Origin: Chiloscyllium plagiosum
Taxonomy: Eukaryota
Reading direction: 5' to 3'
DNA: 38,367 bases
Assembly (NCBI RefSeq): GCF_004010195.1
Contig: NC_057755.1
Coordinates: forward strand, 11,085,805 to 11,124,171
Both the position numbers and the translations under genes were made by a program. The notes under the pieces were generated by a model, which saw only the letters and a program-made list of their open reading frames with translations, was not told the DNA's origin and searched no databases. Below, in pieces: positions 20,060-34,420 of this stretch (position 1 is its first letter; every line of letters begins with the position of its first letter).

Positions 20060-20769
20060 TTCATAAAAATATCTTGATATCTGTACATACAGTCACTAAA
20101 CAATTTGAGTCTGTACAGTAACATATGAATAAACAAACATTAGACTTTTGACTCAATCCAACAAATAAATTAAATGCATTTCTCACTTGTACAAGACTAT
20201 ATCTACATACATTTAAGGCACTGGGGAGGGGGTGATAACTGAACAGACCCCCATTTATCTTTAGCTGAATGGCCTCAGACAGTGGTCTTTCCCCACTGTG
20301 CCTTGGTGGTAGCTGCCCTAAGCTTTTAGTGCACCCCCTCAGCACGTCACCCTGCATCTTGGACTATGCCAGTCTACAACACTCGGCCAGGGTCAACTCC
20401 TAGCTCTGGAAGACCAAAGAGCATTTTTCAGTAGGTGGATGGTCCTCTGGGTGCAGTCGCTAGTTGTCTCGGTGTGTGTCCTGGGGAACAGACAGGGTCC
20501 CATGTCACAGAGCTGCTCACGACAAACCTCTCTCCAGACTTCCTTCGCAAAGACACATTCCAAAAAAAGGAAGAAGCGGGAGCAAATTCCTGCAGATGTT
20601 GGAATCTGTTCCGAAAACAACAAATGGAGATCACAGTGGGTCAAACAGCATCAATGGGGAGAGCAAGCGGACATCGAATCTAGATGACTCTTCTGACATT
20701 CAGAATGAGCTGTGAGACAGTCTCTACCTCAACTCAAGGTCAGCGGCTGGTGGTGCAGAAAGACTGGGC
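20060..20769 (-). mobile_element. Tx1-clade LINE, ORF2 C-terminus and 3' UTR (3' part of the element split by R2)
   Basis: ETV..L..LECVFAKEVWRE...FPRTHTET...KNALWS...CCRLA.SK...AQWGKTTV*, then an AT-rich UTR. A short Penelope-type insert lies at ~20575-20695. Confidence 0.75.
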
Positions 20770-23700
20770 AAATTTTGAACACTCGACATCTATTGTATAA
20801 ATTGTGTCTATTTTGTGTTTTTTCTCGTCACTTGTCGACGCGGAGTATACCACTTTACAGCTGCACCACAGCCAGATGTTACAAGGACATTCAGGGGTTA
20901 TAAAACCAACAGGTTAGCTACCTCATATCCACATTGTCTGTTGTGTTTAGTGAAAATTTTAATTTACACCCAACTGCCCACCACCTTACGGTGCTAAAAA
21001 TACTCTACTTTATTGCTAAAATTTTTAAAGTTTTAAATATTTTAAGCAATAAAAGTGTTTTAATAATCTTAAAACTATAACTAAATTTAAAACTATAACT
21101 ATATTCCTAAAATAAAGAGAGCCTACAAGAAGGCCATCATATGTCCACATAAATCTGGTGTATCCCCAACGTCAGAGATATCGTAAGGCTGGATATATTG
21201 CGGACAAATGGCTTAGTTAGTTATACCCAGCGACTTCATCAACATATTTTTATCACACCATTTCCTTCTAGCTCCTACGACAAAACCATAAAAGAATACA
21301 TTGGCCCCTTTCGAAAGGTCCAGTATCACCTTCTCCAAATGCTGATATTTCACCGACTTCTCCAACTAAGCTTGTTTAAGTGAGTCGTTTTCCTTTTCAA
21401 AACATACTGTGATGGCCCCCAGCACCGCCTGACCATCCTTAAACAGAATTAAAGTCGGGTATCCATAACTTCCGGTCAGCATCTTTTAAAATGGGCTTCA
21501 ACAAAAATTGTCCATCCATTCTTCTGAACAAGTTGGGTTCAAACATCAGCTATGTTATTGCGATTCTTTATCCTCATGTTTTTTTTTACTGAAATTATCA
21601 TCCAGAGAAGTGAGGAATCGTTTCAACTGCCAAATTAAATAATACAAACTGCAGGTGATGTAAAGGTCCTCCATAAGAGAAAGTAGTCCTTCATAGATTT
21701 GTCCTTAACAGAATTGTTTTAATAGCTCTGGATGTTCTCATACACAATAATCTTTTAGTCCAGGCAGGAGATATATTGTTGTTTTTAAAATAATGGATTC
21801 CCAACCCTTGGCAAGGCAGTGTCACAAAATTCTGTAATCCGGTTTCTCCATTTACCATAATTGTTGTTAATATCTTCCACTAGCTCTTAACTCTCCATAA
21901 CTTGGGTACTTGGAGCGCCAACGGACAGGCCAATTATTTGAGGATCCCAAGTTTCACAAATTCGTCAGCTGACTCAATTCTGCCAAATTTTTGACATTCT
22001 AGAATCATTAAAACGGAACGAGGCTTGTAAAATCTCAATCGGGAGCTCTTTGAAAAGCTTCATATTTCCACAATACTGCAATCGGTATTAGTATTGCTAA
22101 TTTATTTAATCCTAACCCACTATCTCTGTTCTGTGCATATAAAATGCCATCTGTTACAGATTGTGGAAAGTGTAAAACTTCCTTAATAAAACCCCTAATT
22201 ATCAAATCTAAATTTATTTAGATCATTTTGAGAAGCTTCCAATAATGTGAGATAATAGTACAACCTTGGAATAAAATTAGTTTTAAAAACCTTTTGTAGT
22301 GGTTTTAAAAGGCGATTTCTTTAGGTTTGCTATTCAATCTCTCAGCAATTCTTCCGAATTGGATGTACCTATTCCCACCCATGGAGCTATTTTCACCCAG
22401 AGATATTTTTCTGTATTACCTGGCTATATATACTGTATTTCATTATTAAGACTCCAGTTTTTCCTACTATTATAAATAAACATTTTATTCTTTAAACAAA
22501 AATGGATCCCTTTCGTTTTTCTCACGTTCGCCCTGTATTATCACCGAACGTTTGCACTAATTTAAGATTATAAGACATTTCTTCATAGGTTCAACTTTAG
22601 CCTACATGCATGACATTGCCTTATGTTGCACAATGATGCCTTTCAAGATCAGGATCTAAAAAGATCCCTTTGGTACTCTCTTCCAATGAACGAATGAGGG
22701 GGATCTAACGCTTATATTAAAAAGGAATGGGTGATAACGAATCACCCTGTTTCATGCCTTTTAAAGATCTCTATTTTATTAGCTTTGCATCTATATCCTT
22801 TTAAATTTGTAATTATTTTAACAAATTCTGTTGGGACAGAATCTATTTAGGGCTTTAATAATATCCTTATGACCAACTGAATCAAAAGCTTTAGCTAAAT
22901 CAATAAATACATTAGCTAATACTTATTTTTTCTTCTTCAATCCTTTAATAATATTACTCAAGATTTTAATATTTTGGTCATGACCCAAAACTCCTGCAAG
23001 GAATCATTTTTGTCGCTTATTTAATCCAATTATTCCACTTAGCCTTTTAGCCATTATTCTAGTAAAGATCCTGAGTAAAAAGGCCCAACTGTTATCGACC
23101 TCCAGTTATCTATTTCTTTCAATTCTTCTTTATCATTAGTTTTAGGTATTAGTGTTGTTCTATTAATTTTCATGCAATATTCCTGATTGTTCGTAGCCAA
23201 ATTGAGAACAGACAACCTTGGAAGTGTTTTATTGCCTGCGTTATACATGGCCATTATATCTTTCATCTCCATACCATCCAGCCCTGCTGTGGTTTTTGGG
23301 TCGATCACTTTAAGGGCCTGATCGACTTCATCCACAGTTATTGGCCGGACTGTGGGATAATTTGGTTGTTTACTTCCTCCTTAATATTTTGCAAGTTTTG
23401 TAATATTTGCTTCATCATTAGGCATTGATTATTTGTGACGGAAGAACTCGTCGAGTTCCTCTTCGTAAGGGGGCACATACTATCAACAGGAGCTCCCAAT
23501 ATTTCCCTTGCTAAGGACTGCCTTTTATATTTAAACAGCGTTTGCATTTGCCTAAATCTACTTTTCCTTTTTACAAGTCTCCTTCTTGCGTTATTCGTCG
23601 GAGTTATTTGCTTTCCATTTGATAAGCTAGTCATAATTTTGTCCGTTTTGTTATTTCCCTTTCCCACATTACACTTATTTTTAGCAATATTATCTTCTAT

Positions 23701-24851
23701 TTGGCCCAACAGGTCATTTAGAGTTTTTCCAATCGTGTCCCTTTCTCCATCTTTATTCTCAGTAAGCAGCTTTAATTTGTATCTCCTCTAGATTTATTAA
23801 TCTCTCTTACACTTCACTTTCTTGTTCCTTATTATCAGCATGCCCTCGTTCGATTTCTTTGTCATCTTCCTTGTCCTCTATTCCTTTTACTACTACTCTG
23901 CTTAGCTAAAAACAAAAATCTTTTATCAGAAAGTTGTTTACGCATTTTATTCTTCAACTGTTCCGCTATCATTTTATGCCACCAGAATATGGCTTCTCCA
24001 GGTTTTGTAACATCATTACCTCCACACTGGACCGAATTCCTTGTTTATTCTTATTTTGACTATTACTCTTCTTACTAACATTTTAGCTTCTTTTAGTAGT
24101 TCTTAGGGCAGCATGTTTATGTCTCAGGCTGCCCCAAATCTACAGCGGTCGAAAACGCAAGGGGACATCTTTCACACTAGAAGACCCCATTCAATTGCAT
24201 TGCTTTTTTGCCTGTCCATTTGGGATAATGACAAGCTACAGCATGGTAGCGGTTTTCCCCAAACACACTTATCACGCCCCGATTGAATATTTTCAAAAAA
24301 AAAAAGTCCAATTCTATTAAACACATTGTGACAAGAATCACATTTAAAATTATCTAAAGGCACACTTTATAATTAGGTCTAATTTATCTTCATTTTCAGC
24401 TGGATTTATAACCAATGGCTCTACTGGAATGTCAGACTCCTTGCTTTCAAGCTCTCTTGCAAAATTAAAAAAGCCCTTTAAAATTAGAGTTGTTATAAAA
24501 AAGTCTTAGTTATTAAAAGACCAGAGTCTTGGAGGAAGCTTCTCCTTTGACTGCATCAAATTTCCATTTTGATTCTCACTATTCAAAATGGCTTCCTCGT
24601 GCCTGATCGAAGAAACTCATATTGAGAGAATATCAAAAAAGGTCTCTTCCATCTGGGTTTGCACGGACAATTGAATTAATTTATGGCAAGAACGCTTTAC
24701 ACGCAATGCCATCGTAAGCATTCGTGCAGGGCAGTTGTTTCCCCGGTTGTCCACCTGTGGGATATAGGTAAAGCAGTGTTACTTCTGCAATCATAATTGC
24801 TTATGCAAGGTGAATGAACTAACCTACACCAGTGTATAATTGTTTCAGCAA

Positions 24852-25573
24852 AGAGCTGAGTTAGCTAATATTGATAGATTTGAAGGCCAATGAGGTAAAC
24901 GGGGAAGTACCGAAAATTGAAACTGTAAAAAAAAAAAAAAAAAAATTGTGGAGTAAGGGGTGGCTACTTGCTAGTCACCCCTTCTTGCAAGAACATTTCA
25001 ATAAAATTCGCTGCTTCAGAATTTGACTCGGACTGAAATTTGTGAGCTGTTTCTCTCACACCCAACTGGAAAAAGGGAGAATTAAACTTGAGCCATTCTA
25101 TCAGTAATCTTTTCTGAACTATCCTAAGACAAAAAGACCCGAAGGGTCAACAGCCATTTCATATTCCTTCTCTAGTCGTATTCGTCAAACTGGATTGAGT
25201 ATTAGGGTCAAGGCTGGAAAAGCACAGCAGGTCAGGCAGCATCAGAGGAGTAGGGGGGAGAAAAAAAACACCATTTCGGGCAAAAGCCCTTCATCAGGAA
25301 ACCCTGGATTGAGTAATACTCTAGCAACGGTCTGACATAAGTTAAAACCACTCAATGCCGATTAAAATTTGACTAACAGATATAAAAACAGCATTAAAAC
25401 AGTTTAAAAACTAGTCAGCCATTAAAACGAGCTTCCTCTACCAGGTCGTTACCAGGGGGAACCACATGAAGGTTTGACCAACTCTATAGGCGACAATACG
25501 TAAAAACAATGGAGAGGTGACTTCACAAGAATATTGTTGGGAGACCCAAACAAAACAGTAGTCACATCCCACC
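24852..25573 (-). ncRNA. Predicted HDV-like self-cleaving ribozyme of the R2 5' end with very long P4
   Basis: Minus strand: P1 5' GGUGGGA (25573-25567); P2 5' AGAGUUGG; P3/L3 aac-CUUCAU-gug (cf. cac-CUCCUC-gug); P1 3' UCCCCCU plus GG; P4 UAA..UGGUAGA / UCUAUCA..UUA; J4/2 GCUAAC (24865-24860); P2 3' UCAGCUCU (24859-24852). Confidence 0.65.
25202..25303 (-). mobile_element. Short Penelope-derived insertion with 12-bp TSD inside the R2 5' region
   Basis: ctggattgagta at 25190-25201 and 25304-25315. Insert carries CTGATGAagggcttttgcccGAAA. Confidence 0.8.
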
Positions 25574-25585
25574 CCCCCACCCCCC

Positions 25586-27195
25586 ATCCATTAAGGAACG
25601 CACATGTAATACACTTCTCAACACCAGCCAAACAGTGCTTTGGTACTAGTCTGAAAGTTCTGATGAGTCTGCTCAGGGAACAGCCTGACAAGATCCACCA
25701 TCTACTCTTCCCACAGGGTCTCGCAATGTGCCGTTCCCGCTACCCCTGTGGTCAAACGTGTTCCTCTTTGCAAATTTTTCCAGAGGACTGGTGACACAAA
25801 GGACTAATTGGAGTGTTCCAGGGTAATGAGGCCAGTCTCATCCTCCAGAATACCGGGGAAAGGTAGAACCTCAGTATGTATTGGCACATGGTGTTTGCAT
25901 ACAGGGTCTATGCACAGCTTGATGCTGCTGCACATAAAAGGTAGCTGTCAGGGTAAGGATGGTGTTGGGTACGCACTCCCCTCACCTTATCCAGAGTTTT
26001 GCACTTAGTGTCCCTGTGGACATGGTTCATCTTTGACCTCCAGATGAAGTGCAAGATGGTTATTACAACTGCCCATGTTCTGGCAATGGGCCAGACCGGT
26101 GCCACCTGCAACAAAGTGAATGCCTCACACCTGATGACCAGGTTTTAACTATGATGGAAGAGGGAGTGGTGCTCCCGAAAGCCCGGTCTCAGTTTCACTT
26201 GGGCGGTGTGAATCCCAAGTTTTTGCCCATGCTTGGGCCTCTCCACACCAGGTAACCTGTCCTGATGGCGAAGAGGATAAAAGAACAAGGCCTCACTCTT
26301 GCATTGGATTCCCTGGGCCCCTGAGGGCAGTTTGAACTGGTCACAGATGCTGAGTCTAGGCACAGACAGTGGGTCAGTAGAATTTGGTGATGTCGTCCAC
26401 GTACGGGGAGGATTTGACTTGCAGGCCTCTGCTGCCTGGAATAGTTTCCCCGCTCAGGCTCACATCCTTCCTGACAGACTCAGCAAACTCTCTGTACAAC
26501 ACACAAACAAGGCAGGAGAGAATGGGCAGCCCCGCCAGACTCTGGATCTGATCGGGAAGCTTTATGATTCCCAAGCATTGATCGAGACCGCATGAACGAT
26601 GTCGGCGCAGAGCAGTCGGATTCAGTTGCGGATTCCCTCCCCACTTTGGACAGCACGTCCCATGTGTAGGTGTACAATATCCTGTCAAAGGTCTTCTCCT
26701 GGTCCAGGCTGCTGAGGCAGGAGGCCACTCCCCTGTCCTGCACGTAGACGATCGTATCCGAGAGCCTTGCACTCCTCAGATTGTTCTCCACGGTACAGCA
26801 CAGGTTTGGTCGGGGTGAATCACTGATCCCAGAGAAGACCTGACCTGGTTGGCGATGACCTGAGACAGGATTTTGTAGTCTGCATTCAACAGTCAGACTG
26901 TTAGAACTTGGCAACCAATTGGAGAAGTGCAAAGCTCTCAGGAATACGACCACCTACGTACAGGGCAGGGGTGTGGACCGAGCAGAGGACAACTCGGCCG
27001 GTAAGCTGCCACTTCTGGGAGTTTAAATTCTTTTCGAATGACTCGAGGACCTTGGTCAGCTCATGCAGAGATAATGGCTGGTCCAGCATCTCCTACCTTC
27101 TGCTGTCAAATTCCTGCATGACAGAAGACAGGATTGCGCTATCTGTGGGCTTCTTGTTGTGCAGTCTGACATAAAAGGATTTGCTGATCCTCTGC
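25586..27195 (-). mobile_element. Tx1-clade LINE ORF2 RT region (5' part of the element split by R2)
   Basis: LDQPLSLHELTKVLESFEK, SLDQEKTFDRI.YTY.WDVLSK, VKSSPYVDDIT, WLVLRSVLHVRSLM up to the R2 junction. Confidence 0.85.
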
Positions 27196-33127: not shown

Positions 33128-33270
33128 CTGACACAGAGCGGCGTTCGAGGGAGAGAATCCCAAACCAGACCAACTCTTCCCGTTCTCCTCCGGAGGAGGA
33201 CGTTAACACAGACCACCACCTGCTCGATCAGGCGGCGCCATTTTAGCTTCAGGACCCGCGCACGCGCCGT
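33128..33270 (-). other. Probable first (5' UTR) exon of an unidentified minus-strand gene
   Basis: Downstream of GC boxes. YY1 motif AAAATGGCGCC (33234-33244). Ends in donor CAG|GTCAGT (GT at 33127-33126). The ATG opens only 12 codons. Confidence 0.55.
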
Positions 33271-34420
33271 CCGCACTGGCCCAGGCCCCGCCCCCGCGCC
33301 CATCGCCCCCCCCGAGGCAACGGCCCAGCCCAGCCCCCGCCCTCGCCCCGCCCCCTCATTAGACCCCGCCCCCGCGCGCGAGCCCTTCGTCTCCCCAAGA
33401 GGCAACAGCCCAGCCCAACCCCAGCCACTTCCCCGCCCCGCCCCCGCGCGCGAGCCCTTCGTCTCCCCAAGAGGCAACAGCCCAGCCCAACCCCAGCCAC
33501 TTCNNNNNNNNNNNNNNNNNNNNNNNNNNNNNNNNNNNNNNNNNNNNNNNNNNNNNNNNNNNNNNNNNNNNNNNNNNNNNNNNNNNNNNNNNNNNNNNNN
33601 NNNNNNNNNNNNNNNNNNNNNNNNNNNNNNNNNNNNNNNNNNNNNNNNNNNNNNNNNNNNNNNNNNNNCGACCCCATTGCAGGCCCCGCCCACACCACGA
33701 TGAGACCCCGCCCAATATGCGCCCGCTCCCACCCCGTCTCGCTTCCACGACCGCCCAAATCCCCGCTTCAAGCCCCGCCCCAAATCACCCCAGCCAGCCG
33801 TGCCCGAGCACCCCGCCCACTTCAGGCCCCGCCTATCGCTCCGCCTCACAGAAAACGTCACGCCTTACCACTCAGGCCCTGCCCCCGGCCGCGCCCCCCC
33901 CGAGGCCCCGCGCGAGACGGCGGTTAACGGTCGCCGCACGTGCCGGCGAGTGACGGTTAGCAGCTGCTTCAGCGAGAACAGCCAAAAGCATGGGCCGGCA
34001 CCGGGCGCCGCCAGTAATAACCACAGCAAAATAACCACGAGAAACGCACGGCTTTGCATTGAGCAAGCGGGCATGGTTAGTAACGTTTGCGGACGGCGGG
34101 GTTCTCTCAGACGGTCTCGGTCAAGTGGGCCAGTGGGCCGGGAGAAGGGCAGGTGGTTTCGATCTGGATAAACGCCGGGTACTGCATTTTGGGGTGAAAC
34201 GGGCAGTCGGCCGAGACCGTGACAAGAGCCCGGAGCAGAAATTGGGCCGTTCGGCCCATCGGGTCCGCTCCCGCCGCCGCTCGATCGCGGCCAGTGGGTT
34301 TCTCCAAACGGCCATTCTCCCGCTTTCTGCCCCGTTAGCCTGGATTCCCTTCCGACGGTACCACCTCGGGTGCTGTTGTTTGCACCTTTGGGTGCAGGCG
34401 CGTAGAGATGTTACAGCGCG
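33170..34420. promoter_or_regulatory. CpG-island promoter
   Basis: Very GC/CpG-rich. Many CCCCGCCC GC boxes, CCAAT (~33712), CRE-like aacgtca, E-box cacgtg (~33937), YY1. Confidence 0.85.
33364..33668. repeat. 72-bp GC-rich tandem repeat running into an assembly gap (N 33504-33668)
   Basis: 'agcccttcgtctccccaagaggcaacagcccagcccaaccccagccactt' at 33381 and 33453, then Ns. Confidence 0.85.

Follow-up and report, generated by a model that had tools for sequence, protein, structure and literature searches.

What is the short leader at the 5' end of an R2 retrotransposon that lies outside the rDNA, and where did it come from? We analyzed a stretch of 38,367 nucleotides from Chiloscyllium plagiosum (contig NC_057755.1; hereafter, the window). 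An earlier note on this DNA had described a 28-nt leader on the minus strand that aligns loosely to the 28S sequence just upstream of the R2 site and that would supply the 5' strand of a ribozyme's P1 helix. It left two explanations: either the template RNA was a ribozyme-processed co-transcript of the rDNA that was copied to its end, or the family has internalised this piece. The leader was located correctly: minus strand 25573-25546 reads GGTGGGATGTGACTACTGTTTTGTTTGG. We consider it likely that this leader is a captured arm of the 28S that is now encoded by the element, that has co-evolved with its pairing partners, and whose first 16 nt take part in the element's own predicted ribozyme. (The helix names P1, P1.1, P2, P3, and P4 follow HDV ribozyme usage.)

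A decayed full-length R2 of lineage A has its 5' end at position 25573 and runs to 20773 on the minus strand (Table 1). In an alignment, the 5' ends of 30 relatives map to window positions 25568-25578. At the other end, the sequence is common to the relatives up to GAGTGTTCAAAA, which corresponds to 20773; a 3' end at 20812 is ruled out, as the relatives run on past it. By tblastn, the C. punctatum protein P0001 matches 23742-21222. Remnants of the second and third zinc fingers and of the Myb domain are legible in the window copy, and a first zinc finger was not discerned among the remnants in the window's translation. The copy is 74-82% identical to its closest relative (L002), so we consider it to be old; in itself, it is an ordinary dead fossil.

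Table 1. Features of the R2 copy and its flanks in the window (pairing, cleavage, and catalytic positions are predicted).
Feature	Positions	Strand	Remarks
Decayed full-length lineage-A R2 retrotransposon	20773..25573	-	5' ribozyme, broken ORF, 3' UTR
Broken ORF of this R2	within 20773..25573	-	remnants of zinc fingers, Myb, RT, and a putative endonuclease
5' flank, interspersed host repeat	25589..25720	-	ends CCTTAATG
Junction-added G-rich tract, GAT + G6TG5	25574..25588	-	in neither the empty target nor 28S
P1 5' strand, GGTGGGA	25567..25573	-	family GGGGGGA; 28S counterpart GGCGGGA; predicted self-cleavage 5' of 25573
J1/2 helix 5' strand, GTGACTAC	25558..25565	-	28S counterpart GTAACTAT
T/G-rich variable linker	25546..25557	-	5/12 to 28S, not recognisably 28S
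J1/2 helix partner strand, GAAGTCAC	25517..25524	-	GTAGTCAC in the family; in the sister family ATAGTTGC, paired to real 28S
Second J1/2 hairpin	25482..25516	-	within-family covariation; loop common to sister family
HDV-like core	25452..25479	-	P2 5' strand 25479-25475; P3 25473-25471/25463-25461
L3 of HDV-like core, TTCATGT	25470-25464	-	family TCCACGT
P1 3' strand, TCCCCCT	25460-25454	-	predicted to pair with 25573-25567
P1.1, GG	25453-25452	-	
P4 3' strand, J4/2, and P2 3' strand	25174..25192	-	P2 3' strand CGACT (25178-25174); predicted catalytic C at 25184
102-nt high-copy repeat in ribozyme P4/L4 region	25303-25202 within 25190..25315	-	12-nt direct repeat on both sides
12-nt direct repeat around 102-nt insert	25315-25304 and 25201-25190	-	
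3' flank, same host repeat continued	20690..20772	-	starts TTTGCCCAG; empty copies TAYGCC; 28S TAGCC

How similar is the leader to 28S? The host's own 28S from -28 to -1, taken from rDNA locus L062, is identical to the 28S string that had been quoted. The leader matches it at 11 of 28 positions without gaps, or at 20 positions in 30 columns with four gaps. This is better than shuffled sequence (p = 0.00025 for mononucleotide and 0.0022 for dinucleotide shuffles, 20,000 each), and the -28 site is the second-best of the 2,693 28-mers of the host 28S. The loose alignment therefore stands as better than chance, but it is confined to the first 16 nt: the distal 12 nt match at 5 positions and lie inside a T/G linker of variable length. 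That the leader has the same length as the 28S segment is a coincidence, since its 28S-like part is 16 nt long. With the first 7 nt held fixed, the p values rise to 0.017 (mononucleotide) and 0.076 (dinucleotide), and for the leader of the intact copy L037, p is 0.019 over the whole length and 0.36-0.38 once its first 7 nt are fixed. A 6/8 match to GTAACTAT within three offsets is found at 1.1-2.6% of background positions. Judged on sequence alone, the similarity beyond the G-rich start appears weak, and similarity by itself fails to separate descent from convergence. The third base of the leader is T in the window copy only. A T is what CpG decay of the 28S GGCGGGA would be expected to leave, but the family carries G here, which rules out a decayed C.

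We then compared 5' ends across the family, whose own leader starts GGGGGGATGTGACTAC. Thirty loci found with the window's 5' end as the query have a common start. Genome searches, each of which scored its best 40 candidates, yielded at least 47 5' ends; these were gathered by script as 47 distinct ends, some of which are probably allelic or duplicated. Thirteen of the 47 were found only by a pattern that fixes G at position 3 (32 exact matches, versus 1 in a reversed control). Among the 34 copies found without it, position 3 is G in 23, A in 8, T in 3, and C in none; the A cases and two of the T cases are copies shortened at the 5' end. The start that the earlier note expected the non-rDNA copies to share, GGCGGGA with the C of 28S at position 3, is in none of the 47 5' ends gathered, although a common start does exist. 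The substitutions that set it apart from 28S are shared by nearly all copies, including young ones, which the note had named as the sign of internalisation.

The upstream sequences tell us where the leader belongs. Thirty of the 47 5' ends have other flanks, 7 follow 28S-like sequence, and 10 follow the 3' end of another R2. In the copies flanked by 28S, the leader comes after real 28S, and the deletions differ from copy to copy (L109, L117, L123; L046, L048, L058; L084), and the published R2-1_CPu row likewise reads real 28S and then the leader (PMC13188248). These copies have seven different 5' junctions. Uniform 5' junctions or exact duplications of 28S, which are traits of R2 ribozymes that cleave at -28, are not seen in this family. 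Of the two explanations, it is the internalised one that describes the family: the leader is encoded by the element, is fixed in the family, is complementary to two downstream strands, and sits downstream of intact 28S in rDNA-type copies. In a run search, 36-56% of the words of L109 were present in four contig sets of one study; the small shares elsewhere are no evidence.

As had been proposed, the start of the leader is predicted to supply a P1 strand, which pairs with TCCCCCT downstream. We aligned 34 of the 47 copies for structure, leaving out 13 that were truncated, deleted, or near-duplicate. Across P1, the J1/2 helix, the J1/2 hairpin, P3, and P1.1, 91.9% of 1,049 cells are paired. If the same structure is slid along the alignment, this falls to 33-46%, and none of 500 shuffles reached the observed level; 40 of 500 shuffles had at least as many pairs with changes on both sides. 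P1 has 7 bp and is 87% paired, with double changes in none of its 7 pairs within the family. Its first pair is GU in 18 copies, GC in 4, AU in 3, and unpaired in 9. Double changes within the family are found in 2 of the 8 pairs of the leader's J1/2 helix and in 6 of the 11 pairs of the second J1/2 hairpin; RNAalifold predicted both of these elements unaided.

P2 and P4 close about 270 nt downstream. Their counts rest on sequence anchors: of the 41 copies with both anchors, 39 have the predicted catalytic C, and G-C alternates with A-U at P4 pair 3 (19/10) and at P4 pair 7 (29/11). By pair counts, the family has the nested double pseudoknot of an HDV-like ribozyme, formed by P1, P1.1, P2, P3, and P4. 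All bases of the family's L3 but one agree with the motif quoted in PMC5035012. The prediction thus places the first 16 nt of the leader in two helices of an HDV-like ribozyme that the element itself encodes.

The window copy's ribozyme is most likely inactive, to judge from its defects: a U-C mismatch in P1, a C to T change in L3 at a P1.1 base, mismatches in P2 and P4, and the 102-nt repeat that interrupts L4. An Rfam scan of the window gave one chance snoRNA hit and no match to a ribozyme. The 102-nt repeat had 707 first-look candidates in a genome search, often as inverted pairs. It resembles the termini of Penelope-type elements.

The strands that pair with the leader have counterparts in a sister family of R2s in the same genome. 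In the sister copies L183 and L184, 24 nt identical to 28S stand directly after non-rDNA flank, and the P1 3' strand is CCCGCC or CCTGCC. These copies look like copied ends of co-transcripts and the window copy does not, so the signature of a template that was cleaved at -28 in an rDNA co-transcript, as the earlier note had it, belongs to the other family. (A search with the 5' region of L126 gave six matches, none with a complete leader; a pattern search then gave three.) The sister family's 28S segment does two jobs: its GGCGGG is in P1, and its GTAACTAT pairs with ATAGTTGC. When given 8 own-leader rows and 3 sister rows without structure input, MAFFT placed GTAACTAT under GTGACTAC and ATAGTTGC under GTAGTCAC. 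Also, a C and then a hairpin come after both GTAGTCAC and ATAGTTGC, and the two hairpins have similar loops. The leader's partner strands occupy positions homologous to those of the strands with which real 28S pairs in the sister R2s; as MAFFT set the sister P1 strand off by one column, the homology for P1 rests on a comparison of duplexes and on reading by eye.

The changes between the two families compensate each other. Across both families, the J1/2 helix is 96.6% paired, a level reached by none of 500 shuffles; double changes are found in 3 of its 8 pairs, and this count was reached by 62 of 500 shuffles. Two double changes in J1/2 distinguish the families (A-U to G-C and U-A to C-G), and the helix also shows one U-G to U-A change. 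At position 3 of P1, where 28S has C and the leader G, the P1 3' strand has changed from G to C to match. These double changes between the families amount to three single events that separate two clades, one of which is represented by 3 sister rows. Each of the three substitutions that set the first 16 nt apart from 28S has its compensating change, and the sole other change is one added T. Predicted duplex energies are reciprocal, in that each 5' strand pairs best with its own family's partners. For P1, our family's partner strand gives -12.6 kcal/mol with its own leader versus -8.4 with 28S, and the sister family's values are -12.7 versus -9.1 kcal/mol. For J1/2, the energies with a family's own versus the other family's 5' strand are -11.9 versus -5.7 and -10.4 versus -5.1 kcal/mol. 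The P1 3' strand TCCCCCT lacks the complementarity to 28S GGCGGG that marks -28 ribozymes, as a C-C mismatch results.

In the RT region (33 rows), the own-leader copies and P0001 form one clade (UFBoot 100), which is sister (98) to the -28-type shark copies plus catshark proteins (100). The tree includes decayed copies with long branches, and chimaera and ray elements were left out of it. Together with L189 and L193, the window copy falls in an older sub-branch; it groups with L077 (UFBoot 100). In the portion of the 2026 catalogue file covered (PMC13188248), the exact -28-type string GTGGTCCCGCTGG occurs 96 times and GTGGTCCCGCCGG 5 times; that of the own leader occurs twice, in both cases in bamboo sharks. 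By eye, the lineage-A rows from chimaera, ray, catshark, and zebra shark in that file have P1 3' strands that are complementary to 28S GGCGGG. Because of the tree, the string counts, and these outgroup rows, the -28 state is likely ancestral.

These observations suggest a path. An ancestor would have cleaved at -28 in co-transcribed 28S, and an insertion would have tandemly duplicated the -28 segment. Compensatory changes would then have been fixed at P1 pair 3 (C-G to G-C) and at J1/2 pairs 3 and 8 (A-U to G-C and U-A to C-G), after which the RNA would be cut at the element's own first G (position 0). The cDNA that ends at position 0 would share little homology with the target, which would account for the ragged 5' junctions and the added G-runs of the family: second-strand priming by microhomology, along with slippage on the G-run or non-templated additions, could have produced the tract at 25588-25574. 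The window copy landed at a look-alike site and has since decayed, as its P1 mismatch, L3 change, 102-nt insertion, and broken ORF show. The proposed path agrees with the duplication-and-compensation route that Eickbush, Burke and Eickbush described in 2013, with R2 B and C of the sea squirt as the examples (PMC3774820, Fig. 8d,e).

Could the leader have arisen in another way? If it supplies P1 but formed de novo from non-templated junction sequence ("de novo P1" is Eickbush's term; PMC3774820), then its likeness to 28S is convergence. R2 does add G-runs at these junctions, and G-rich P1 strands are favored (PMC11331408); one extra T separates the two blocks, and past the first 7 nt the shuffling tests find little similarity. 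However, about 15 new bases would be needed, complementary to two strands, in the order of 28S and at nearly its spacing, while exact duplications of the 28S segment occur in the sister family and in many species (PMC3774820). We consider a de novo origin to be unlikely.

We give much less credence to a leader that was internalised as a passive 5' extension, with cleavage mostly at -28 in real 28S (the route of Fig. 8b,c). Three rDNA copies that lack part or all of the G-run (L048, L058, and L084) could use only 28S for P1, with one C-C mismatch. But the dispersed copies start at the G-run with no 28S before it (30 of the 47 have no 28S and no tandem R2 upstream), both partners pair less well with 28S than with the leader, and variable junctions in 28S are a signature of position 0 (PMC3774820). 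There is next to no chance that the window copy was reverse-transcribed from a co-transcript cleaved at -28 and that its 28 nt are real 28S decayed in place: its similarity exceeds that of shuffles (p = 0.002), its rank is 2 of 2,693 28S positions, and the route is real for the sister family (L183, L184, L161), but the derived bases are common to nearly all copies, including young ones and those after intact 28S, the P1 3' strand is TCCCCCT rather than CCCGCT, the true leaders of this genome differ hardly at all from 28S (the window copy's matches at 11/28 ungapped), and L002, L003, and L005 from the window's subfamily show no independent, unshared departures from 28S.

Returning to the captured arm, we asked what it did for the lineage. 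Both the own-leader and the -28 families disperse outside the rDNA, so the captured arm by itself is not the cause of dispersal. It is a more doubtful proposal that the arm freed this R2 lineage from the rDNA co-transcript, with dispersed copies and arrays as sources and with propagation in a vertebrate that is partly independent of the rDNA. Any read-through transcript, whether of a dispersed copy or of a head-to-tail array, would then be cut to a unit-length template.

Among known elements, the R2 B and C of Ciona are alike in using a duplicated 28S segment as P1, in compensatory change, in a shift of cleavage to the 5' end, and in variable junctions (PMC3774820). The shark family differs in that it is a vertebrate lineage-A R2, in that the J1/2 helix was also taken over and compensated, and in that a family of the ancestral type is present in the same genome. 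The captured-arm route is apparently undescribed for vertebrates. We did not find an internalised leader of a shark or other vertebrate R2 in the literature searched (it may have been described elsewhere), and the passages of PMC3774820, PMC13188248, PMC5035012, PMC11331408, PMC13580325, and PMC12222951 that were covered do not describe a shark ribozyme or leader. If our reading is correct, this is a vertebrate lineage-A case of a shift in cleavage site for which a model was given in 2013, with sea squirts as the only illustration. Ancestral and derived ribozymes would stand side by side in one genome, with three compensatory pairs marking the path.

The -28 R2s of lineage A (R2Tg of the zebra finch, PDB 9dou; R2-1_STig; L183 and L184) have the same protein architecture and RT, and their ribozyme core, partner strand, and J1/2 hairpin loop are homologous to those of the own-leader family. 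They use host 28S for the 5' strands of P1 and J1/2, and their P4 is short; the own-leader family instead encodes these strands itself, its P1 measures 7 bp, and its P4/L4 is long (about 190-270 nt). PRINT-type gene insertion is built on lineage-A R2s, and in it the 5' module and the pairing of cDNA with the target set the precision of the junction. With their closely related proteins, the two families offer a natural comparison of -28 with position-0 templates. The R2 of Drosophila (position 0) is similar in that its HDV-like ribozyme is self-contained and its 5' junctions are ragged, with bases added and parts of the 28S deleted, but it belongs to lineage D and the text covered gives no trace of a 28S origin. 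R2NS-1_SMed and R2NS-1_CSi are likewise R2-clade elements outside the rDNA and are described as non-specific in the passages covered (PMC5035012). In contrast, the own-leader family still hits the canonical 28S site as well as look-alike sites, and it has rDNA copies, so it does not belong with R2NS.

The nearest published elements are R2-1_CPl and R2-1_CPu from bamboo sharks, which have the same 5' UTR and ribozyme layout (PMC13188248, Table S2, rows 171-172). L077 and L048 read like the R2-1_CPl row, with a 915-aa ORF and the same junction; the window copy differs in being dead, outside the rDNA, and from an older sub-branch. Table S2 puts GGGGGGAT of R2-1_CPu under "Upstream 28S" and gives R2-1_CPl without the first 9 nt, and the main-text passages covered contain no ribozyme analysis (ribozymes are mentioned twice, both times in references). 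The catalogued 5' boundaries of these two elements omit the first 8-9 nt, which is the P1 5' strand. This is a correction of 8-9 nt for each, and the published versions, if used, would lose P1.

Among the relatives, L077 is the best preserved; its ORF matches R2Tg with E = 1e-141 in the PDB, followed by the B. mori R2 (8e-50) and L1 (5e-29). Its N-terminus, with three zinc fingers and Myb, aligns to that of R2Tg. In L077 and the copies of the P0001 clade, the first zinc finger ends in Cys, and R2Tg has His; this difference may loosen the recognition of the target. Only RT scored above the Pfam cut-off; NERD (E = 0.008) was below it. CCHC and PDL-type motifs in the second ORF of L077 may mark a C-terminal endonuclease region.

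Judged by its flanks, the window copy is integrated at a 28S look-alike inside another repeat, outside the rDNA. Empty copies of the host repeat read about CCTTHATG and then TAYGCC, which resembles 28S CTCTTAAGG followed by TAGCC. The G-run next to the leader (25585-25574), which the earlier note suggested may be non-templated or slippage sequence, is missing from the empty copies and is indeed junction-added; shorter extra Gs are found at the 5' junctions of L034, L041, L115, and L119. The same site in the host repeat is occupied by R2 in four further copies (L036, L037, L044, and L052). Counting L067 as well, one site that mimics the 28S target has been used repeatedly, and a second flank is common to L047, L054, and L116. 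Among the intact 3' ends of the window's subfamily, 6 of 7 continue with TAG(C/T)C or TAGCA, and the seventh is the window copy. Canonical 28S insertion, with the 3' flank TAGCCAAATG, is seen in L077 and 10 more 3' ends and not in the window copy; the L077 query included 28S and was biased towards rDNA flanks, so these 11 ends give no on- or off-target rate. A 3'-end motif failed on 12 of 30 loci.

Several copies are arranged head to tail, with the 3' end of one R2 followed by the 5' end of the next (L051, L080-L082, L085, L115, L118, L122, L153, L154). These arrays are on short unplaced contigs, and in several, part of the leader is repeated over 17-19 nt ahead of the full G-run. Template jumping may have produced them, or an R2 may have inserted again at an older 5' junction. 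Beside the own-leader family, the genome contains at least two lineage-A families of the -28 type (L183, L184, L182, L160, L161, L124, L126). Fresh tandem duplications of the 28S leader, which would be the first step of the proposed path, are present in the sister-family copies L126 and L182, and in L159, a -28-type R2 is preceded by the 3' end of an R2, with no 28S leader.

Elsewhere in the window, about 300 bases at 24756-25058 are missing from related R2 copies and are an insertion, with a central run of 21 Ts (minus strand) and an adjoining GC-rich hairpin-like segment. On the plus strand, 1172-2170 is an intronless, AT-rich open frame of 332 aa that resembles a trypsin-like serine protease (it has a GSSGSP motif). 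A GC-rich island at 33200-34200, with an assembly gap and a signal-peptide-like frame on the minus strand (about 34410-33865), is probably the first exon of a host gene.
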